From the IMG/VR virus record IMGVR_UViG_2547132488_000013: a stretch of 9,319 bases of DNA. One strand, 5' to 3'. This DNA comes from a virus. Lineage: Duplodnaviria; Heunggongvirae; Uroviricota; Caudoviricetes. Position numbers and translations under genes: made by a program. Below, in pieces: positions 410 to 8,904 of this stretch; the first letter of the stretch is position 1; the number at the start of each line of letters is the position of its first letter. The notes below the pieces were generated by a model. It made no database searches, had not been told where the DNA came from, and saw nothing but the letters and a program-made list of their open reading frames with translations.

Positions 410-1057
410 CTATAGGTTGAACTGTACACCTTTTGCTACGGCAACAATTTTACACTCTGGCGTAAGCAAGGATGATTGATAGCGCGGATTAAGAGGACTT
501 AAATACACAAGTTTTCCATCAATAACTAATTTTTTTATAGTCATAGACGGTTCATTTGTAAGTGGATCCGGAACTATTACAGCGACGATACTGCCATTTT
601 TATAACTTTCTCCTGGTCTTAGGATCACTGTGGCACCAACCGGGATACTCGGCGACCCTGATGGGTTATGCATAGTGTCATCAGGCATTGAAACGGCAAA
701 ATCACCTTCCACTACATCAAAAAATGTGGTGATCCTATCGACATTTCCCATTGTTTTCTCTCCTTCTAAGATTAGGAAAGAAATCGCGTCACCCCACGAA
801 AAGTAGGGGATCTTGGTGCCTGGATTGCTCTGCACAAAAGATAGTTCAGGAGATGATACTCCATACAGGAGATAGGACTCAGTAGTTCCTAATGCTTGGG
901 CTAACTTACTTAGAGCTTTGCTGCCGGGTTCGTTTAGATCTTTCTCCCAGTACCCTATAGTAACTCCAGTCACGCCTGAAAGCTTACCCAGTTCTACTTG
1001 AGTGAGCCCCTTATCTTTTCTGAGTCTCTTAAGCCTGATGCCAAGGCTTTCCATCAT
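410..1057 (-). CDS. CI-like prophage repressor, N-terminal HTH (XRE-type) plus C-terminal LexA/S24 peptidase-like autocleavage domain
   Basis: 215-aa ORF. N-terminus LKRLRKDKGLTQVELGKLSGVTGVTIGYWE is a typical HTH. C-terminal half has an S24-like serine context (GDFAVSMPDDTM) and a downstream lysine (TIKKLVIDGKLVYL). Divergent from a cro-like gene across a 96-bp operator region. Confidence 0.85.
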   Translation of the reverse strand: MMESLGIRLKRLRKDKGLTQVELGKLSGVTGVTIGYWEKDLNEPGSKALSKLAQALGTTESYLLYGVSSPELSFVQSNPGTKIPYFSWGDAISFLILEGEKTMGNVDRITTFFDVVEGDFAVSMPDDTMHNPSGSPSIPVGATVILRPGESYKNGSIVAVIVPDPLTNEPSMTIKKLVIDGKLVYLSPLNPRYQSSLLTPECKIVAVAKGVQFNL

Positions 1058-1153: not shown

Positions 1154-1381
1154 ATGCGAGTTGATGAACTTGTTCAGTTTTTTGGCTCTGTTCAGAGGGT
1201 CGCTGATTTTTATGGGATAACCCGCGAAGCTATTTACATGTGGCGTAAGCGTCCTGGTGAAATAGTTCCGAAAGGGAGAGCTGCGGAAGCTGCTGCATGC
1301 TCCAAGGGGAAACTATCTTTGAACCCAGAACTTTACAAAAAGAAGGATACCACTCAGAGCGAAAGGAAGAGTGATTCATGA
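1154..1381 (+). CDS. Cro/YdaS-family small DNA-binding regulator
   Basis: 75-aa ORF with strong SD, divergent from the repressor. HTH-like segment GSVQRVADFYGITREAIYMWRKRPGEIVP fits the YdaS/Cro-type pattern. Stop overlaps the next start (ATGA at 1378-1381). Confidence 0.75.
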   Translation: MRVDELVQFFGSVQRVADFYGITREAIYMWRKRPGEIVPKGRAAEAAACSKGKLSLNPELYKKKDTTQSERKSDS

Positions 1382-1803
1382 AAATCAAGCATGAACACAT
1401 CCGCATGGCGATGAATGCCTGGGCGCATCCGGACGGCGAGAAAGTACCGGCTGCGAAAATTACCAAAGCGTATTTCGAACTGGGTATGACGTTCCCGGAA
1501 TTGTACGACGACAGCCATCCGGAAGCCCTGGCCCGCAATACTCAGAAAATTTTCCGCTGGGTAGAGAAAGACACCCCTGATGCTGTTGAAAAAATTCAGG
1601 CGTTGTTACCAGCGATCGAAAAAGCAATGCCGCCTCTGCTGGTGGCCCGAATGCGCAGCCACAGTTCAGCCTTTTTTCGGGAACTGGTGGAGACGCGGGA
1701 ACGACTGGTGAGAGACGCTGATGATTTTGTCGCAGTGGCGATCGCTGGTTTCAATCAGATGAATCGTGGTGGCCCGGCGGGAAATGCCGTGGTCGTTCAT
1801 TAA
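1378..1803 (+). CDS. YdaT-like protein (proposed CII functional analog in Rac-type prophages)
   Basis: 141-aa ORF translationally coupled to the cro-like gene. N-terminus MKIKHEHI and the position immediately after a YdaS-like gene match my recollection of Rac-type ydaS-ydaT pairs. Family assignment is from memory, not a search. Confidence 0.5.
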   Translation: MKIKHEHIRMAMNAWAHPDGEKVPAAKITKAYFELGMTFPELYDDSHPEALARNTQKIFRWVEKDTPDAVEKIQALLPAIEKAMPPLLVARMRSHSSAFFRELVETRERLVRDADDFVAVAIAGFNQMNRGGPAGNAVVVH

Positions 1804-1824: not shown

Positions 1825-2118
1825 ATGACATTTACAAATGAAGGTCGAATTGTTTTTGATTTTGAGTACGAAACACCATTGCAGAGATTGATTATGTTAA
1901 GAATTTTCTGCTCTGGGAGTGGTGATGGTGGGCGCGAAAAGCGTTTTGAAGATCAGGAATTCCGACGTTTTTGTTGTTGTACGTTTGATGAGTTTGAGCA
2001 GGCTATCGCGAAACTTATCGAGATGGGAGTGATTCATAAAATAAGTTATGGATATCAATACGGAAAGCCATCAAGCGGTTACATCATCAAAGATCCGGGT
2101 GAAATTATTCAGTTATGA
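1825..2118 (+). CDS. Hypothetical protein (97 aa)
   Basis: ORF with SD AGGAG (1813-1817); stop overlaps the start of the replication gene (ATGA 2115-2118), indicating co-translation in the early-right operon. Confidence 0.65.
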   Translation: MTFTNEGRIVFDFEYETPLQRLIMLRIFCSGSGDGGREKRFEDQEFRRFCCCTFDEFEQAIAKLIEMGVIHKISYGYQYGKPSSGYIIKDPGEIIQL

Positions 2119-3080
2119 GTCTTCTTTTTGCTGAACGTCCGCTGGTTATTAACACGCATCTGGCGATGAAAATTGGCCTGAACGAAGCCATCGTGTTGCA
2201 GCAGCTGCATTACTGGTTGAGAGATACCGGTTCCGGCATGGAATGTGATGGTGTTCGCTGGATTTATAACACAACAGAACAATGGCTGGAACAGTTCCCG
2301 TTCTGGTCAGAGTCAACGTTAAAACGCGCATTTGCAAGTCTGAAAACGCTGGGGCTTTTGCGTTGCGAAAAGCTCAACAAATCAAAGCGTGACATGACTA
2401 ATTTTTACACGATTAATTACGAGAGCGAGCTTTTAGATGGTGGCAAAGTGAGCGAATCCATCAGGTCAAAATGCGCTGCTCCATCAGGTCAAAATGACAC
2501 GATGGAAGAGGTCAAAATGAAACGCTCCATTGGTTCAAAACGACCCAATGTCATCGGGTCAAAATGGCCCGATGATCTTACAGAGAATACAACAGAGATT
2601 ACTACAGAGAATAAAAATACTTCTCGTCCGGAAGCTTCGCAACCGGACCCGCAGACGGCTGAACAGGATTTTTTAACCCGACACTCTGACGCGGTTGTGT
2701 TCAGTGCGAAAAAACGCCAGTGGGGCAGCCAGGAAGATTTAGCGTGTGCGCAGTGGATCTGGGGACGAATCGTGAGTCTTTACGAACAGGCTGCCAGCGA
2801 TGATGGTGAGATCACGCGACCGAAAGAACCCAACTGGACTGCATGGGCCAATGACGTGCGCACAATGCGGATGCTTGATGGCAGAACTCACAGGCAAATT
2901 TGCGAAATGTTTGGTCGGGTACAGCGGGATCCCTTTTGGGTAAAAAATATCATGAGTCCGTCAAAGCTTCGTGAAAAATGGGACGAACTGGTCATCCGCC
3001 TGGGGCGTTCGCCTGTACAGCGTTGTGTGAATCACATTTCTGAACCGGACACCGAAATTCCGCCTGGGTTCAGGGGGTGA
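2115..3080 (+). CDS. Phage replication initiator (O-like organisation: N-terminal DNA-binding domain, low-complexity linker encoded by iterons, C-terminal domain)
   Basis: 321-aa ORF in the position of a lambdoid replication gene. An iteron array and AT-rich repeats lie inside its linker-coding region, as in lambda O. The C-terminal domain (FWVKNIMSPSKLREKWDELV) may be DnaT-like; unverified. Confidence 0.7.
   Translation: MSLLFAERPLVINTHLAMKIGLNEAIVLQQLHYWLRDTGSGMECDGVRWIYNTTEQWLEQFPFWSESTLKRAFASLKTLGLLRCEKLNKSKRDMTNFYTINYESELLDGGKVSESIRSKCAAPSGQNDTMEEVKMKRSIGSKRPNVIGSKWPDDLTENTTEITTENKNTSRPEASQPDPQTAEQDFLTRHSDAVVFSAKKRQWGSQEDLACAQWIWGRIVSLYEQAASDDGEITRPKEPNWTAWANDVRTMRMLDGRTHRQICEMFGRVQRDPFWVKNIMSPSKLREKWDELVIRLGRSPVQRCVNHISEPDTEIPPGFRG
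2457..2620 (+). repeat. Candidate origin of replication: five iterons plus three AT-rich 12-bp repeats
   Basis: GGT(C/T)AAAA(T/C)G cores at 2464, 2487, 2510, 2532 and 2557 (spacing 23, 23, 22, 25 bp). The first two share the 17-mer TCCATCAGGTCAAAATG. Followed by ACAGAGA(A/T)TA at 2580, 2592 and 2604. Confidence 0.6.
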
Positions 3081-3120
3081 GTGTTTATTTCAGGTCATGA
3101 GATAATTTTCAGGAGGAGTT

Positions 3121-3543
3121 GTGGCAAAAGTTTTTACACAGGAAGAGCGAGAAAAAATTAAAGGGCAGGTTGTTGAACTTGTACGCCAGAGTGGGCGCGA
3201 GACGTTACGGCAACTGGAAGCCAAGACAGGTGCGACAAGATATCTGATGAGCGTTCTCGCAAGAGAGCTGGTTGCCAGTGGCGATGTATACAACTCTGGT
3301 TACGGGTTATTCCCGTCTGAACAGGCTCGTAAGGACTGGCAAAACGCCCGCAAAAAACTCTCGAGAGCAAAGCTGAAGAAAACATCTGTAGTTGATCCGG
3401 ACCTTATCTGGTCGTTACCAGACGGAGAAATACGCCGCTACGACAGGCGTCAGAACATAATCTGTCGCGAGTGCCGGAAGAGTGAGGTTATGCAGCGAGT
3501 GCTGGCGTTTTATCAGGGGAAATTTCAGGAGGTGATGCTGTGA
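3121..3543 (+). CDS. Hypothetical protein (140 aa), basic, with C-terminal CxxC
   Basis: GTG start 4 nt after SD AGGAGG (3111-3116). Contains CRECRK. Stop overlaps the next ORF start (GTGA at 3540-3543). Confidence 0.6.
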   Translation: MAKVFTQEEREKIKGQVVELVRQSGRETLRQLEAKTGATRYLMSVLARELVASGDVYNSGYGLFPSEQARKDWQNARKKLSRAKLKKTSVVDPDLIWSLPDGEIRRYDRRQNIICRECRKSEVMQRVLAFYQGKFQEVML

Positions 3544-3794
3544 GCGAATCAAAATGTCAGGTTAATGGTAATCAGATAGAACCATGTGCGGCACTGGCAA
3601 AGTCCCTTGAGCATGATGCTGAATACACGACGCGAAAAGGTCTGCTGATATACAAAATCTGGAATGAGAGTTTAACTCGCGGTCCTGATTTGGTGATGTT
3701 GCGTTCCGGTGAATTTTCTAAATTACCAGTGCGGGTTTCATTTTGTCCGTTCTGTGGTGAAAGTCTGAAAACGTGGGAGAACAGAAATGAATGA
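3540..3794 (+). CDS. Hypothetical protein (84 aa) with zinc-ribbon-like cysteines
   Basis: GTG start with SD AGGAGG (3527-3532). Cysteines at C6 and C16 plus CPFCGE near the C-terminus. Overlaps the next ORF by 8 nt. Confidence 0.6.
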   Translation: MSESKCQVNGNQIEPCAALAKSLEHDAEYTTRKGLLIYKIWNESLTRGPDLVMLRSGEFSKLPVRVSFCPFCGESLKTWENRNE

Positions 3795-4092
3795 AATTAG
3801 AGAAATACCAGTAGTACGTGATGAATATGGCTACTGGACACATCCGGAGTATGAAAAGTTTTGTGATGGTAGAGAACATATTTCAACGGAAGAGTTTAAC
3901 GCCTGGATGGAGGAAAATAATCTTCAATGGACCATCATAACTATGGATGAAGATGATTTTAATCTGGACGCAGATGGTCCCGATATTGCCTCCTGGAAAC
4001 CGGAGCGCCCGGAAGGTGAAGGCTGGTTCATTGGTTCCATTCATGACACTGAAGATGGTCCTGTTTGTGTATGGCTGAGAAATAAGGCTTAA
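3787..4092 (+). CDS. Hypothetical highly acidic small protein (101 aa)
   Basis: ATG 3787 with SD GGGAGA (3775-3780). About 23 Asp/Glu versus 8 Lys/Arg counted by eye, including the run MDEDDFNLDADGPD. Confidence 0.65.
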   Translation: MNEIREIPVVRDEYGYWTHPEYEKFCDGREHISTEEFNAWMEENNLQWTIITMDEDDFNLDADGPDIASWKPERPEGEGWFIGSIHDTEDGPVCVWLRNKA

Positions 4093-4225
4093 GCATAAAG
4101 GCGATAAACCACCTGACAACAAAACACTGAAAATTTAAATCAGAAGTGATTTTTATTAAATCCTTAACCGGAGGGATTTCTGCACCCTCAGAACATCAGG
4201 AGGCCGCCCGGAAGGGCGGTAATGA

Positions 4226-4444
4226 ATGGTCACATTATTCAGAAAAAAATATCCGCGAAAGAGTAGAACAACAGAATTCCTGTTTCTCATTCTGTTTGTC
4301 GTGTTGATGATACCGATATCCCCGTTAATCCTGGTCTGGATAATCGGAAAAATAATTGAGCCAGTTATTGAATTGTATAACGACGTGGTATGGGCGTCGT
4401 TCAACACACTGCACAATAAAATTAATCCGTATAAGGAAGGTTGA
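4226..4444 (+). CDS. Small single-pass membrane protein (72 aa), AT-rich moron-like ORF
   Basis: Hydrophobic core FLFLILFVVLMIPISPLILVWIIGKII after a basic N-terminus (RKKYPRKSR). Codon usage visibly more AT-rich than neighbours. Stop is 1 nt before the next gene's ATG. SD CAGGAGG (4197-4203) is separated from the ATG by a GNRA-looped hairpin. Confidence 0.5.
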   Translation: MVTLFRKKYPRKSRTTEFLFLILFVVLMIPISPLILVWIIGKIIEPVIELYNDVVWASFNTLHNKINPYKEG

Positions 4445-4445
4445 A

Positions 4446-4733
4446 ATGGCAACTTTGCAGGAATTAATCGACCTGACGCCAGAACAGGAAAAAGCGTGGA
4501 ATCGCCTTGTGAAGGCTGTAAAGGATTTCAGAGCAGCCGGAGGAAAGTTTTATAGTGTCCTGGACACGCTGAGCGCATACAACGGCGAGCACGTTGCCAG
4601 CATTGATAACGATAAGGGCTACCACACTGCAAGCGTCTATATGCCTAGCATTGATGCGCCAGGGCTAACCAGTTGGGCTGATGATTGGCACGGCATCACG
4701 CTGAAAGATGGCGTTGAAGTGGATGAGGACTAA
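4446..4733 (+). CDS. Hypothetical protein (95 aa)
   Basis: ATG 4446 with SD AGGAAGG (4434-4440). The track ORF starting at 4356 is an upstream in-frame extension lacking an SD; 4446 is the likely true start. Confidence 0.65.
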   Translation: MATLQELIDLTPEQEKAWNRLVKAVKDFRAAGGKFYSVLDTLSAYNGEHVASIDNDKGYHTASVYMPSIDAPGLTSWADDWHGITLKDGVEVDED

Positions 4734-4736
4734 CAC

Positions 4737-5159
4737 ATGACCACTATTACCAAAGAACGCGCGGAGATTAAATCATTCATCACTGGTTTCCTGAGCGACC
4801 CGGCGCACGATAACCAATCCTCAGACAGCCTGCTTGCCAATGTGTTTCGTATCGCCCTGGCATCACTGGAAGCAGAACCAGTTGCATGGACTGATGACGA
4901 GGAACTGCGAGATGTTGAGCGAATTGGTTTAGGTTATTTATTACCTTGTCCTCCAGATAAATACGCAGACCCGCGTCGTGTAATTCCGCTGTATCGTGTG
5001 CCGCCAGCTCCTACAGTGCAGGCACAGGGCATTGAGATCGCAATAAACGAACTGGCGTCTCTGTCCCCACAGCTGGATAAACGAGCGGTGGAAACTCTTT
5101 CCATGGCTGTGGCACATCTACGCAAACTGGTTAAGAAGCAGTTGCAGGCTAAGGAATGA
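4737..5159 (+). CDS. Hypothetical protein (140 aa); N-terminal module paralogous to the next gene
   Basis: ATG 4737 with SD GAGGA (4725-4729). Shares ITKER...RIALASLEAEPVA with the downstream ORF. Confidence 0.7.
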   Translation: MTTITKERAEIKSFITGFLSDPAHDNQSSDSLLANVFRIALASLEAEPVAWTDDEELRDVERIGLGYLLPCPPDKYADPRRVIPLYRVPPAPTVQAQGIEIAINELASLSPQLDKRAVETLSMAVAHLRKLVKKQLQAKE

Positions 5160-5162
5160 CAC

Positions 5163-5957
5163 ATGAACGCTATCACCAAAGAACGTATTGAATTGTTCAT
5201 TAAAAATTCGCTTGAAAACGGGTTTACTCGTAGCGAACAAATGGAAGTGGCACGGATTGCTTTGGCATCGCTGGAAGCAGAACCGGTTGCAGTAAACGAC
5301 GACATGGCTTACGCATTCCATCACGCATTGTCAGATTCATCGCTAGGCGCTGATGAAGTAGAGGAAATTAAGGCCGGTTTGCGTGCTGCCTTTGCCAACG
5401 TCACTATCCAACCAGAGCCGGTAGTGCCGGATGAAATCGAGCCAGACGATAGCAATACGTTTGATTATGTTGATGGCTGGAACGCCTGCCGCGCCGCCAT
5501 GCTTCAGAGTCAGAGGGAAGGCAACCCTCATGTAACCCCGGCTCGCCTGCCTGGTGGTTTCACTATTGAGGATGCGAAGGAGTTACATGAAGACCTGGTA
5601 CGCAGCCACATAAGCCAGGCTTTAAGTGGCGAGAAGATGAAAAAGAAAGATCGTGATGCTGATTTGCGCTGGATTCATGGCGTTATAGTACAGGCAGCGT
5701 GGTTTGTGAAAGCTTCACTGGATGCGTTGCCTGAACCGCTGCGGGAGGAGAAGGGAGGAAGTGCCAACTGTACTGCCAGTCATGGTACAACCGACAATCC
5801 ACCAGTACCAGGCAAACAGACTGACGAATTAACCATGCTGGTTAAGCAATTGGTCAGTCAACTGAAGAAAGTGAAGCCGGACTGTAAATTGCCGGATAAG
5901 GCGATGGACTACCTGAAGCGGAACGAACTGATAAGTGCGGAGGATGTTTTGCGATGA
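5163..5957 (+). CDS. Hypothetical protein (264 aa); N-terminal module paralogous to the preceding gene
   Basis: ATG 5163 with SD AAGGA (5151-5155). N-terminus MNAITKERIELFIKNSLENGFTRSEQMEVARIALASLEAEPVA. Acidic central region. Confidence 0.75.
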   Translation: MNAITKERIELFIKNSLENGFTRSEQMEVARIALASLEAEPVAVNDDMAYAFHHALSDSSLGADEVEEIKAGLRAAFANVTIQPEPVVPDEIEPDDSNTFDYVDGWNACRAAMLQSQREGNPHVTPARLPGGFTIEDAKELHEDLVRSHISQALSGEKMKKKDRDADLRWIHGVIVQAAWFVKASLDALPEPLREEKGGSANCTASHGTTDNPPVPGKQTDELTMLVKQLVSQLKKVKPDCKLPDKAMDYLKRNELISAEDVLR

Positions 5958-6073: not shown

Positions 6074-6294
6074 GAAGGAAACAAAACAGAAACAACAATT
6101 GCCGTTACCTGTTGTTACCATGGCAAGTAAACGTATCTCAGGCGAGCGCATTGCACCGTTCTGACGCAGATAAATTAGCCATGGATAGATGGTGCTGGCA
6201 ATAAAAAATAGCGTTTTCTTATCGGTGTCGGTAAGATTGCTGCGGGTGCTTGAGGCTGTCTGCCTCGGGCATGCCACTGTAAGGCAGGCAGAGA

Positions 6295-6397
6295 AAAGCC
6301 CCAGTTAACATTACGCGTCCGGCAAGACGCTTAACATTAATCTGAGGCTCCCTATGCATGACAACATCAGGTTAGCCTCTTACGTGCCGAAAGGCAA
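6295..6397 (-). ncRNA. sok: Candidate Sok-like antisense RNA locus (promoter plus expected transcript over the mok start)
   Basis: Minus strand reads TTGCCT (plus 6392-6397), 17-nt spacer, TAACCT (plus 6369-6374), predicting a leftward transcript from about 6362 across the mok start (6354-6356). This is where Sok maps in hok/sok loci. Transcript 3' end not identified. Confidence 0.3.
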
Positions 6398-6566
6398 GGA
6401 GAAGCAGGCTATGAAGCAGCAAAAGGCGATGTTAATCGCCCTGATCGTCATCTGTTTAACCGTCATAGTGACGGCACTGGTAACGAGGAAAGACCTCTGC
6501 GAGGTACGAATCCGAACCGGCCAGACGGAGGTCGCTGTCTTCACAGCTTACGAACCTGAGGAGTAA
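6354..6566 (+). CDS. mok: Mok-like in-frame N-terminal extension of hok (overlapping regulatory reading frame)
   Basis: ATG 6354 opens a 70-codon frame whose last 51 codons are hok. This matches the layout I recall for chromosomal mok/hok pairs such as mokC/hokC. Confidence 0.4.
   Translation: MHDNIRLASYVPKGKEKQAMKQQKAMLIALIVICLTVIVTALVTRKDLCEVRIRTGQTEVAVFTAYEPEE
6411..6566 (+). CDS. hok: Hok/Gef-family type I toxin (small membrane-depolarising peptide)
   Basis: 51 aa: MKQQKAMLIALIVICLTVIVTALVTRKDLCEVRIRTGQTEVAVFTAYEPEE. N-terminal TM helix and conserved RKDLCEVRIRTGQTEVAVFTAYE signature of Hok/Gef/RelF. SD AAGGAG (6396-6401) 9 nt upstream. Confidence 0.85.
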   Translation: MKQQKAMLIALIVICLTVIVTALVTRKDLCEVRIRTGQTEVAVFTAYEPEE

Positions 6567-6981: not shown

Positions 6982-7467
6982 ATGGCTGAGATTGTTGAAG
7001 GTGTGCATTACCTTACGGTTGATGATCTTGTTGAAATCAATCGTTCCCTAATTGAATTACAGACGCCAGATGAGCCCGTTGGTGTTCTGAGTCCAGATAA
7101 CTTAAGTTCTTCTCAGGCCCGTCCCAGCATGGTTCGATGGTATGAACAGATCAATGACATGTTTGTACTGGCATCGGTATTGATTGAAAGTCTGATTCAG
7201 AATCATCCGTTTGCTAATGCGAACAAACGAACAGCTATGATGGCTGGTTACGTCTTCTTGTTGTTGAATGGCTATGAGTTAACAGCACCAGGCGATGAAA
7301 TCGTGGAAATGGCAGAGGGACTGGCCTGCAAAACCTATACTCGAGAAGATCTCGAGAACTGGTTGTGTTATTGGTCTCGTGCGTATGACAGCCGGGAATT
7401 ATGTAAAACAGGCGCAACTATTGTTTTGTATGAAACTATCAAGCTTAAAATAGAACAGCAAAACTAA
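6982..7467 (+). CDS. doc: Doc (death-on-curing) / Fic-fold family toxin
   Basis: 161-aa ORF containing HPFANANKRTAMMAGYVFLLLNGYEL, which matches the Doc-type catalytic motif (compare P1 Doc HIFNDANKRTA). Confidence 0.8.
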   Translation: MAEIVEGVHYLTVDDLVEINRSLIELQTPDEPVGVLSPDNLSSSQARPSMVRWYEQINDMFVLASVLIESLIQNHPFANANKRTAMMAGYVFLLLNGYELTAPGDEIVEMAEGLACKTYTREDLENWLCYWSRAYDSRELCKTGATIVLYETIKLKIEQQN

Positions 7468-7483
7468 AGGTGCTTCCAATGAA

Positions 7484-7505
7484 AACCCGCTTCGGCGGGT
7501 TTTTT
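7484..7505 (+). terminator. Rho-independent terminator downstream of doc (same hairpin as the hok terminator)
   Basis: AACCCGC-TTCG-GCGGGTTTTTT: stem 7485-7490 / 7495-7500, T-tract 7500-7505; begins 17 nt after the doc stop. Confidence 0.7.
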
Positions 7506-7580
7506 GTTTTACGTATTCTGGTTTACAATCCACAGGCCAGCCTGAACAACTGGCACCTGCTGCGCCAGCAGAGAAAACCG

Positions 7581-7853
7581 ATGGCGCACAATACCAAACA
7601 TCACAATTCTGATACCGACCTTGCCAGCAGGCACGGGCGGCGTTCTCATACATTCAAATATGACTGGTACCAGCATGACCCATGCACTGAAGAACAGGCC
7701 GAATGGCTGATTCAGAACTACCGCAGGCGTGGGTACGAGTTTCAGAAAGACCTCAGCCCTGACTTCCGACACTGGATAATTTCTGTCAGGCTCCCTTATT
7801 CCGAACGCCCACCGCGTCCATCCCGCACATACCAGCAACGGATCTGGAGGTAA
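7581..7853 (+). CDS. Small basic protein in the position of Qin-prophage Rem (90 aa)
   Basis: ATG 7581 chosen because the track ORF from 7470 reads through the terminator hairpin. Lies immediately upstream of the YdfU-like gene, as rem does in Qin. Weak SD; start codon uncertain. Confidence 0.5.
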   Translation: MAHNTKHHNSDTDLASRHGRRSHTFKYDWYQHDPCTEEQAEWLIQNYRRRGYEFQKDLSPDFRHWIISVRLPYSERPPRPSRTYQQRIWR

Positions 7854-7854
7854 C

Positions 7855-8904
7855 GTGCGGGTATTAGTTCGACCTGCCCTGGTACCGGAACTCGGACTGG
7901 TGGTGCTAAAGCCGGGCCGCGAATCCATGCAGGTATTTCATAGCCCTCGAGTGCTGGTGGAGCCGGAACCGAAAAGTATGCGCGGTCTGCCGTCCGGAGC
8001 CGTCCCTGCCGTTCGCCAGCCGCTGGCGGAAGATAAATCATTACTGCCATTTTTCAGCAATGAGCGGGTAATTCGTGCTGCCGGTGGCACTGGTGCACTG
8101 TCTGACTGGCTCCTGCGTCATGTTAAATCCTGCCAGTGGCCTCATGGTGACTATCATCACAGTGAAATCGTCATACATCGTTACGGTACCGGCGCTATTG
8201 TGTTGTGCTGGCACTGCGACAACCAGCTGCGTGACCAGACCTCAGAATCACTTGAGCAACTTGCTCAACAAAACCTGGCAGCATGGATGATTGACGTCAT
8301 CCGTCACGCAATAAGCGGTGCGCAGGAGCGTGAATTATCGCTGGCTGAATTATCCTGGTGGGCTGTCTGCAATCAGGTGGCGGACGCACTACCGGAGGTA
8401 GTATTACGTCGTTCTCTGGGGTTACGTGCGGAAAAAATTCGCTCGGTGTACCGCGAAAGCGACATCATACCGGGAGAGCAGACAGCCACCAGCATACTGA
8501 AGCAGCGCACAAAAAATATTGTGCTATCGCCTCACGTCCACCAGCAACAGAACTCACCGCAGGAAAAGGCGGTGGTCAGCATTGCCGTTGATCCGGAGTC
8601 TCCGGAATCTTTCATGAAGCGACCTAAACGTCGCCGTTGGATAAATGAGAAATACACACGCTGGGTGAAGACACAGCCGTGTGCGTGTTGTGGTAAGCCA
8701 GCCGACGATCCCCATCACCTGATTGGTCATGGTCAGGGCGGAATGGGAACAAAATCCCACGATATTTTCACGCTACCGCTGTGTCGGGAGCATCACAACG
8801 AACTTCATGCGGATCCGCTGGCGTTCGAAGAAAAGCATGGTTCTCAGGTTGATTTAATTTTTCGTTTTCTTGATCACGCCTTTGCAACCGGTGTGCTTGG
8901 GTAA
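7855..8904 (+). CDS. YdfU-like prophage protein (DUF968-type) with C-terminal Cys/His-rich putative metal-binding nuclease-like motif
   Basis: 349-aa ORF, GTG start 4 nt after SD GGAGG (7846-7850). C-terminus CACCGKPADDPHHLIGHGQGGMGTKSHDIFTLPLCREHHNELH. Length and position (between a rem-like gene and rusA) fit Qin-type YdfU. Confidence 0.75.
   Translation: MRVLVRPALVPELGLVVLKPGRESMQVFHSPRVLVEPEPKSMRGLPSGAVPAVRQPLAEDKSLLPFFSNERVIRAAGGTGALSDWLLRHVKSCQWPHGDYHHSEIVIHRYGTGAIVLCWHCDNQLRDQTSESLEQLAQQNLAAWMIDVIRHAISGAQERELSLAELSWWAVCNQVADALPEVVLRRSLGLRAEKIRSVYRESDIIPGEQTATSILKQRTKNIVLSPHVHQQQNSPQEKAVVSIAVDPESPESFMKRPKRRRWINEKYTRWVKTQPCACCGKPADDPHHLIGHGQGGMGTKSHDIFTLPLCREHHNELHADPLAFEEKHGSQVDLIFRFLDHAFATGVLG

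Follow-up and report, generated by a model that had tools for sequence, protein, structure and literature searches.

Organisation of the locus

The window, a stretch of 9,319 nucleotides analysed here in full, comprises the immunity, replication and nin-like region of a lambdoid (Rac/mEp460-like) prophage of E. coli type. The features which concern us, from the repressor gene to the end of the three open reading frames (ORFs) under study, are the following (positions are those of the window; Shine-Dalgarno-like sites were read from the sequence):

410-1057, minus strand: LexA/S24-type repressor gene
1154-1381, plus strand: cro-like gene, the first of the rightward operon
1378-1803, plus strand: YdaT/cII-like gene
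1825-2118, plus strand: small ORF
2115-3080, plus strand: O-like replisome organiser gene (phrog_391, "replication initiation O-like", E 9e-96)
3111-3116, plus strand: Shine-Dalgarno-like AGGAGG for ORF1
3121-3543, plus strand: ORF1 (423 nt, 140 aa), DUF977/LygF/Ren-like
3527-3532, plus strand: Shine-Dalgarno-like AGGAGG for ORF2, within the end of ORF1
3540-3794, plus strand: ORF2 (255 nt, 84 aa), four-cysteine protein, phrog_4030
3775-3779, plus strand: Shine-Dalgarno-like GGGAG for ORF3, within the end of ORF2
3787-4092, plus strand: ORF3 (306 nt, 101 aa), acidic alpha/beta domain, phrog_1372

ORF1 starts 40 nt past the end of the O-like gene. On the 3' side of the three ORFs lie a DUF4014 gene, several genes for modular early proteins, a hok/sok locus, DUF968, RusA and a gene of the Fic/DOC type. 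Among public sequences, an E. coli chromosome matches the window most closely (95.6% identical), with an identical gene order in its PGAP annotation, and parts of the region are present in related arrangements in phages Rac-SA53 and mEp460. The region is an ordinary lambdoid mosaic, carrying accessory genes of catalogued families.

Genes of the rightward operon are packed closely, the successive junctions within the window measuring -4, +21, -4, +40, -4, -8, +133, +1, +3 and +3 nt (negative values are overlaps). Between positions 2800 and 4600, a consensus scan detected no plus-strand terminator, and the only plus-strand promoter-like match (4527-4556) lies 3' of the three ORFs; promoter-like matches in this interval are at chance level (3 found, for 2.3 expected). 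The three ORFs would be reached by rightward transcription from the early promoter, past the cro-like, YdaT/cII-like and O-like genes. An initial annotation, made from the sequence alone, had regarded them as early genes, in agreement with their place among the early accessory genes of this operon. No RNA family was detected by Rfam inside 3121-4092, and no defence-system family by PADLOC for ORF1, ORF2 or ORF3 at E values up to 0.01.

Three genuine protein-coding genes

The three ORFs and their overlaps, as initially annotated, are confirmed in the sequence. ORF1 and ORF2 overlap by 4 nt at a GTGA (ORF1 stop TGA at 3541-3543, ORF2 start GTG at 3540-3542), and ORF2 and ORF3 overlap by 8 nt at ATGAATGA (ORF2 stop TGA at 3792-3794, ORF3 start ATG at 3787-3789). 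The RefSeq/PGAP annotation of the closest E. coli genome agrees, with three genes of equal lengths (423, 255 and 306 nt).

Comparison with homologous DNA (29 to 59 distinct homologous DNAs per frame) revealed differences at codon positions 1, 2 and 3 numbering 213, 162 and 808 in ORF1, 257, 187 and 700 in ORF2, and 483, 408 and 1345 in ORF3. As third-position differences are in excess in all frames, ORF1, ORF2 and ORF3 are under purifying selection as proteins. The small size of the ORFs, and the fact that neither ORF2 nor ORF3 has a curated family in Pfam or NCBIfam, might have suggested that one or more of them are open by chance and not real genes. Such an explanation is hardly credible, however, given the marked excess of third-position differences in each frame, homologue clusters numbering from hundreds to over a thousand, the confidently predicted fold of ORF3 and the annotation of the genes by PGAP. 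These results establish that ORF1 to ORF3 are three real early accessory genes, expressed in series and belonging to catalogued families.

ORF1, a relative of lambda Ren

ORF1 encodes a basic protein (pI 9.9), in which a K/R-rich linker joins a winged-helix-like domain at the N-terminus to a C-terminal motif, ECRxSExMQRVLAFY. It matches Pfam family DUF977 (PF06163) with 109.1 bits (gathering cut-off 22.1; E 2.3e-31), its residues 1-136 covering positions 1-134 of the 134-position profile, and PGAP names its homologue "DUF977 family protein". In addition, ORF1 falls in phrog_142, labelled "Ren-like exclusion protein" (E 1.9e-48), to which lambda Ren also belongs (E 1.6e-41). When a profile built from eleven ORF1 relatives was aligned to lambda Ren with hhalign, a probability of 96.4% was obtained (E 1.2e-9, 90 columns), the alignment extending over the N-terminal domain as well as the ECRxSxxMxRVLAxY motif at the C-terminus; BLASTP between ORF1 and lambda Ren recovered the C-terminal motif only (E 2e-6). 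As lambda Ren does not match Pfam DUF977 at E 0.01, the link between ORF1 and Ren rests on PHROG membership and on profile comparison. The N-terminal domain of ORF1 gives weak, borderline matches to winged-helix structures in the PDB (E about 1e-3), and DUF977 had earlier been predicted to be a winged-helix domain (PMC2686095). Phage records name ORF1 relatives LygF, which is a locus name only, derived from the Sdr I difference region of Salmonella Enteritidis.

None of the three ORFs was initially thought to resemble a recognised protein. Remote homology searches did place ORF2 and ORF3 only in uncharacterised families (phrog_4030 and phrog_1372, respectively), but the statement fails for ORF1, a DUF977/LygF protein and a relative of Ren.

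Genomic position points the same way. Among related loci, 22 distinct contexts have an ORF1 homologue directly 3' of the O-like gene; in the remaining contexts inspected, the homologue lies 3' of a replication module of the YdaU/YdaV/YdaW type. Similarly, lambda ren lies within the pR operon, immediately 3' of the replication genes (O-P-ren), although the module preceding it consists of O plus P in lambda and of a single O-like gene at the ORF1 locus. The two proteins are also laid out alike, with a winged-helix-like domain at the N-terminus and the ECRxSxxMxRVLAxY motif at the C-terminus, but Ren is 96 aa long and ORF1 140 aa, the latter carrying an extra K/R-rich insertion of about 45 residues between the two conserved parts. 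Judging from sequence comparison and gene order, ORF1 is a homologue and positional counterpart of lambda ren.

Ren is produced from the pR transcript, is likely to be involved in replication and, in two-hybrid assays, interacts with the Rex proteins (bioRxiv 10.1101/2021.04.19.439022). Lambda grows and forms plaques without it, and the lambda nin5 deletion removes ren. Sensitivity of ren mutants to Rex exclusion was reportedly observed by Toothman and Herskowitz in 1980, and escape from Rex exclusion is named in the title of a 2022 article by Thomason and Court. Because Ren is named for this escape, the anti-defence idea put forward for the three ORFs has indirect family support for ORF1 only, and an anti-defence role for ORF1 is plausible by analogy, through its family history.

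Under the reading we favour, ORF1 would be a small winged-helix protein that accompanies the 3' end of the replication module. The analogy with Ren suggests that it most likely acts on, or together with, the replication complex of the phage, through which it might let the phage avoid Rex-type exclusion. Alternatively, ORF1 may serve chiefly to regulate prophage transcription or as an accessory factor of replication, binding DNA as a winged-helix protein at early promoters or the origin, and be devoid of any role against exclusion or defence. The winged-helix-like N-terminal domain and the basic character of the protein (pI 9.9) are consistent with such a function, as are the fact that it invariably closes the replication module, whatever the type of the latter, and the description of Ren as "likely involved in DNA replication". 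However, the sole named phenotype in the family (in the PHROG label and in an article title) is escape from Rex exclusion, and lambda can grow without Ren, which is missing from nin5. We consider a purely regulatory or replicative ORF1 to be a serious possibility, albeit one somewhat short of even chances. A replication role and an exclusion-escape role are not mutually exclusive.

ORF2, a widespread four-cysteine mini-protein

The ORF2 protein contains cysteines at positions 6, 16, 69 and 72, the last two within a CPFC sequence (motif FCPFCGE), and belongs to the uncharacterised family phrog_4030 (E 1.6e-39). Its homologue in phage P7, Upf87.4, is 83% identical. A first search for relatives returned 72 clusters, confined to E. 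coli, Salmonella and Citrobacter, while a full profile search retrieved 300 cluster representatives (50% clustering level) from several phyla, most of them 80-110 aa long and matched end to end. Among 69 diverse members, all of which fall in phrog_4030, C6, C16, C69 and P70 are invariant, and C72, G73, G34 and G57 are conserved in at least 90%. The family is therefore much larger and taxonomically wider than the first search suggested, and its four-cysteine site is strictly conserved.

Prophage-like regions of Xenorhabdus, Edwardsiella and other Gammaproteobacteria contain ORF2 relatives, as do those of one Limnochordia and one Treponema genome. Around the distant relatives (six loci obtained from a profile search with a smaller alignment), we found tightly packed small genes, which are unrelated and vary from case to case. 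Likewise, phrog_4030 members, which share with ORF2 the C-x9-C ... CPFCG pattern (as do P7 Upf87.4 and D6 orf99), differ from phage to phage in their neighbouring genes.

The initial annotation described ORF2 as a zinc-ribbon protein with an N-terminal cysteine pair. Some resemblance to zinc-ribbon proteins (RNA polymerase subunit M/TFIIS type) is indeed apparent: both have four conserved cysteines and a C-terminal CPxCG knuckle, which in ORF2 follows a predicted strand-rich segment, and the ORF2 profile gives weak local matches to zinc-ribbon CPxCG knuckles. However, a zinc ribbon consists of two CxxC/CPxC knuckles carried on beta-hairpins, and ORF2 has just one (the C-terminal CPFC). Thus, all four cysteines are present and conserved in the 69 members, but the supposed N-terminal pair is spaced C-x9-C and does not form a CxxC knuckle. 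Moreover, only one of the 69 family members matches Zn_ribbon_11 (E 0.002), with no Pfam zinc-ribbon family above threshold, and the AlphaFold2 (AF2) model of ORF2, built from a 29-sequence alignment, is too low in confidence for use (mean pLDDT 47.2). Assignment to the zinc ribbons is consequently not upheld. More generally, no relative of ORF2 was found above threshold in Pfam, NCBIfam or the PDB. We also considered the small cysteine-rich nin proteins NinD and NinF of lambda, which are unrelated to ORF2 by its profile.

As the cysteines are conserved family-wide, a four-cysteine metal site in ORF2 is well supported, and the protein likely binds metal, to judge from its sequence. The ligand would most likely be one metal ion, probably zinc, held by the four conserved cysteines. 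Such a zinc-stabilised mini-protein probably acts by binding another macromolecule.

ORF3, a conserved acidic domain

ORF3 was initially described as highly acidic, and this is fully borne out: with a pI of 4.19 and a net charge of -17, it is the most acidic among the nine plus-strand ORFs for which these values were computed (2115-5957). Acidity is a property of the whole family, as 34 members range from -12 to -22 in net charge and from 4.05 to 4.42 in pI, and in homologues only 30-40% identical, from Burkholderia, Vibrio and Yersinia phages, the matched domain still has a net charge of -13 to -15.

ORF3 matches the core of phrog_1372, an uncharacterised family. Its own core motifs are RDxYGYWTHP and W-PE-P-G-GWF-GSIHDTEDG-VC-W-R. 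Residues invariant in the family are mostly aromatic residues, histidine, proline, glycine and cysteine, and are located in RDxYGYWTHP and W-P-x-x-P-x-G-x-GWF-GSIHDTEDG-VC-W-R. A profile search returned 1091 clusters, and tblastn detected ORF3 in 61 phage records, including Burkholderia, Vibrio, Pseudomonas, Yersinia, Klebsiella and Erwinia phages, none of these 61 records giving the homologue a functional name. Temperate phages and P1-like phages carry the family widely.

The AF2 model of ORF3 is confident (pLDDT 84.9, pTM 0.74) and shows a pair of helices packed against a sheet of three strands; an acidic loop is modelled with less confidence. We found nothing above threshold in Pfam or NCBIfam, and no significant similarity to solved structures in the PDB, either in sequence or in modelled fold. 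Structure prediction, suggested along with the initial annotation, was thus informative for ORF3, whose confident model has no solved counterpart, and not for ORF2.

In addition to standing alone, the ORF3 domain is found as the C-terminal module of proteins of 190-300 aa; in pairwise comparisons, the N-terminal parts of these proteins match the Rac-SA53 "ead" protein (E 2e-9 and 8e-4). These long proteins contain no domain named in Pfam or NCBIfam, the link to Ead being pairwise only. Their organisation parallels that of lambda Ea22, which comprises an N-terminal part, a coiled-coil and a C-terminal domain (PMC10834534). ORF3 itself stands alone, unlike the C-terminal modules of Ead/Ea22-type proteins, and the solved C-terminal domain of Ea22 shows no significant similarity to it. 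A relationship with DUF551 was also considered, and comparison of the ORF3 profile with a DUF551 protein showed the two to be unrelated. From its composition and conservation, we propose that ORF3 would be a folded acidic domain, elsewhere borne as C-terminal "cargo" by modular Ead-like proteins, which most likely binds a basic surface of a host or phage protein.

Could ORF3 alone be an inhibitor of the DNA-mimic type, that is, an anti-restriction protein, or a decoy whose negative surface attracts a DNA-binding defence or host protein? Like T7 Ocr and ArdA, it is small, early-expressed and very acidic; its acidity (pI 4.19, net charge -17) is matched across the 34 members (-12 to -22) and is kept in the homologues of 30-40% identity as well, and the family has spread widely among temperate phages and P1-like phages. 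However, Ocr and ArdA show no similarity to ORF3 in sequence or fold, and the conserved core of ORF3 is rich in aromatic residues and histidine, which is another difference from these mimics. DNA mimicry by ORF3 is possible but rather improbable in our opinion, and an anti-defence role for this protein is speculative.

One functional unit or three exchangeable genes?

From the overlaps at the two junctions, it had initially been concluded that the three ORFs are co-expressed stoichiometrically, as a candidate anti-defence or host-takeover unit. To evaluate how tightly the genes are associated, we used the 80 closest viral loci per query, 77 of which have room on both sides, a sample which is not an unbiased census. 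Around ORF2 homologues, ORF3 is adjacent in 55 of these 77 loci and ORF1 in 44, all three genes being adjacent in 38 and an adjacent ORF3 being absent from 22. When loci are anchored on ORF3 instead, ORF2 is adjacent in only 36 of 77 and not adjacent in 41, with no ORF2 anywhere in the locus in 38. As for ORF1, its constant neighbour is the upstream replication module and not ORF2.

Individual phages provide further examples. In Rac-SA53, lygF is parted from the ORF2 and ORF3 homologues by two other genes. In D6, the ORF3 homologue is located 1.8 kb upstream of the ORF2 homologue, so that the order is reversed. In P7, the gene located 3' of the ORF2 homologue (Upf87.6) exhibits the same 8-nt overlap; considered as a possible ORF3 homologue, Upf87.6 proved unrelated on comparison.

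The junctions themselves are well preserved in relatives, with the 4-nt overlap kept in 23 of 24 pairs and the 8-nt overlap between ORF2 and ORF3 in 46 of 49. Tight overlap is nevertheless not peculiar to these partners, as the upstream gene overlaps the ORF3 start in 29 of 31 ORF3 contexts devoid of ORF2 (by 4 nt in 26 and by 8 nt in 3). In addition, alleles reassort: ORF2 homologues about 95% identical are paired with ORF3 homologues about 80% identical in 12 contexts, and about 95% identical in 8.

These observations bear on the possibility that the three proteins are made in a fixed ratio by translational coupling and act as one early anti-defence or host-takeover complex. The 4- and 8-nt overlaps with internal Shine-Dalgarno sites, the adjacency of all three genes in 38 of 77 ORF2-anchored loci and the conservation of the two junctions (23/24 and 46/49 pairs) are all consistent with it. 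However, each gene is often present without the others, unrelated upstream genes overlap the ORF3 start just as tightly, alleles reassort across the ORF2/ORF3 junction, overlaps are the norm in this operon, and ORF1 keeps company with the replication module instead of ORF2. A single complex is thus very improbable. Because overlaps and tight junctions recur along the operon and before ORF3, we consider them a packing habit and not the mark of a stoichiometric complex; with overlapping or abutting junctions the rule in this operon, and with genes which assort independently, the initial deduction does not hold. The start/stop overlaps would reflect general operon compaction, probably with translational coupling, and not a dedicated complex. 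The stretch probably represents the start of a lambdoid "nin-like" accessory region, in which three separate genes are exchanged independently of one another. Within the present lineage, ORF2 and ORF3 may nonetheless interact functionally, as they are adjacent in most close relatives and their 8-nt overlap is kept in 46 of 49 pairs.

Implications

Our results chiefly correct an over-interpretation, while giving ORF1 a name (Ren/DUF977). They also illustrate that, in lambdoid early operons, overlapping stop and start codons are a packing habit and should not be taken as evidence for a protein complex.

A more adventurous scenario, to which we attach a low probability, is that ORF3 represents a new and widespread class of acidic phage inhibitor domain and ORF2 a separate zinc inhibitor, their pairing resulting from the accumulation of counter-defence genes. 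Were this true, the ORF3 domain would work either alone or as cargo of oligomeric Ead-type scaffolds, neutralising a DNA-binding host defence protein or a host replication or repair protein. ORF2 and the remainder of phrog_4030 would then be zinc mini-protein inhibitors operating across phyla, and the ORF2-ORF3 pair, frequent in this lineage, would be two counter-defence genes that became neighbours in a hot spot for accessory genes.

Both families are reasonable and cheap candidates for anti-defence or host-interaction screens. That of ORF3, for which a fold without solved counterpart is confidently predicted, is common in phages of many Proteobacteria and has kept its extreme negative charge over a long evolutionary distance.

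Homologues of ORF2 and ORF3 in P1-like phages and modular early proteins

Homologues of the four-cysteine protein (ORF2) and of the acidic domain (ORF3) are also carried by P1-like phages (both by D6, that of ORF2 by P7), in the following features:

Phage D6 (locus L174), 3001-3312: orf96, homologue of ORF3
Phage D6 (locus L174), 5109-5408: orf99, homologue of ORF2
Phage P7 (locus L003), 2232-4572: operon with Upf87.4, homologue of ORF2

The order of the two genes in D6 is reversed relative to the window, as orf96 is located 1.8 kb upstream of orf99; orf96 is followed by a Ser/Thr phosphatase gene. In P7, Upf87.4 is flanked by Upf86.8 and a putative tyrosine phosphatase, an Ead-like gene adjoins, and Op(hea), a predicted C1 operator, lies ahead of the operon. 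The Upf87.4 region looks like an accessory cassette of lambdoid type within a P1-like phage.

The window itself carries two neighbouring modular early genes:

4737-5159: modular early gene
5163-5957: modular early gene

Their products belong to the type of modular early protein that elsewhere bears the ORF3 domain at its C-terminus. Both genes have an N-terminal module in common (phrog_660, 60, 3323 and 5117), while their downstream parts are unlike.

Genes surrounding the three ORFs

Upstream, the last 20 residues of the O-like replisome organiser (2115-3080) form a tail similar to the C-terminal end of the primosomal protein DnaT, although the match (NF002770, E = 0.005) falls well short of the cut-off. 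The window contains no helicase loader gene of P, DnaC or DnaB type. Downstream of ORF3 lie:

4093-4225: intergenic gap (133 nt)
4226-4444: DUF4014 gene
6244-6566: hok/sok-type post-segregational killing locus (Rfam sok and Hok-like ORF)

A consensus scan detected no terminator in the gap. A G+C-rich hairpin (GCCGCCC-GGAA-GGGCGG; fold z-score of -2.3) separates AGGAGG from the DUF4014 start codon (ATG) and could modulate translation of this gene.

The killing locus comprises an Rfam sok match (RF01794, 6244-6416, 109.6 bits) and an ORF encoding a Hok-like membrane peptide (6354-6566). Shortly 3' of it, a Fic/DOC-family protein is encoded at 6982-7467 (PF02661, E = 1e-11), for which PADLOC returned only weak candidate-system matches. 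Finally, a G+C-richer stretch (0.54-0.57) just 5' of the DUF968 gene contains a long ORF on the + strand (7470-7853) that overlaps another long ORF on the - strand (7509-7928). The predicted product of the + strand ORF weakly matches PADLOC entry PDC-M03A (E = 5.5e-4).
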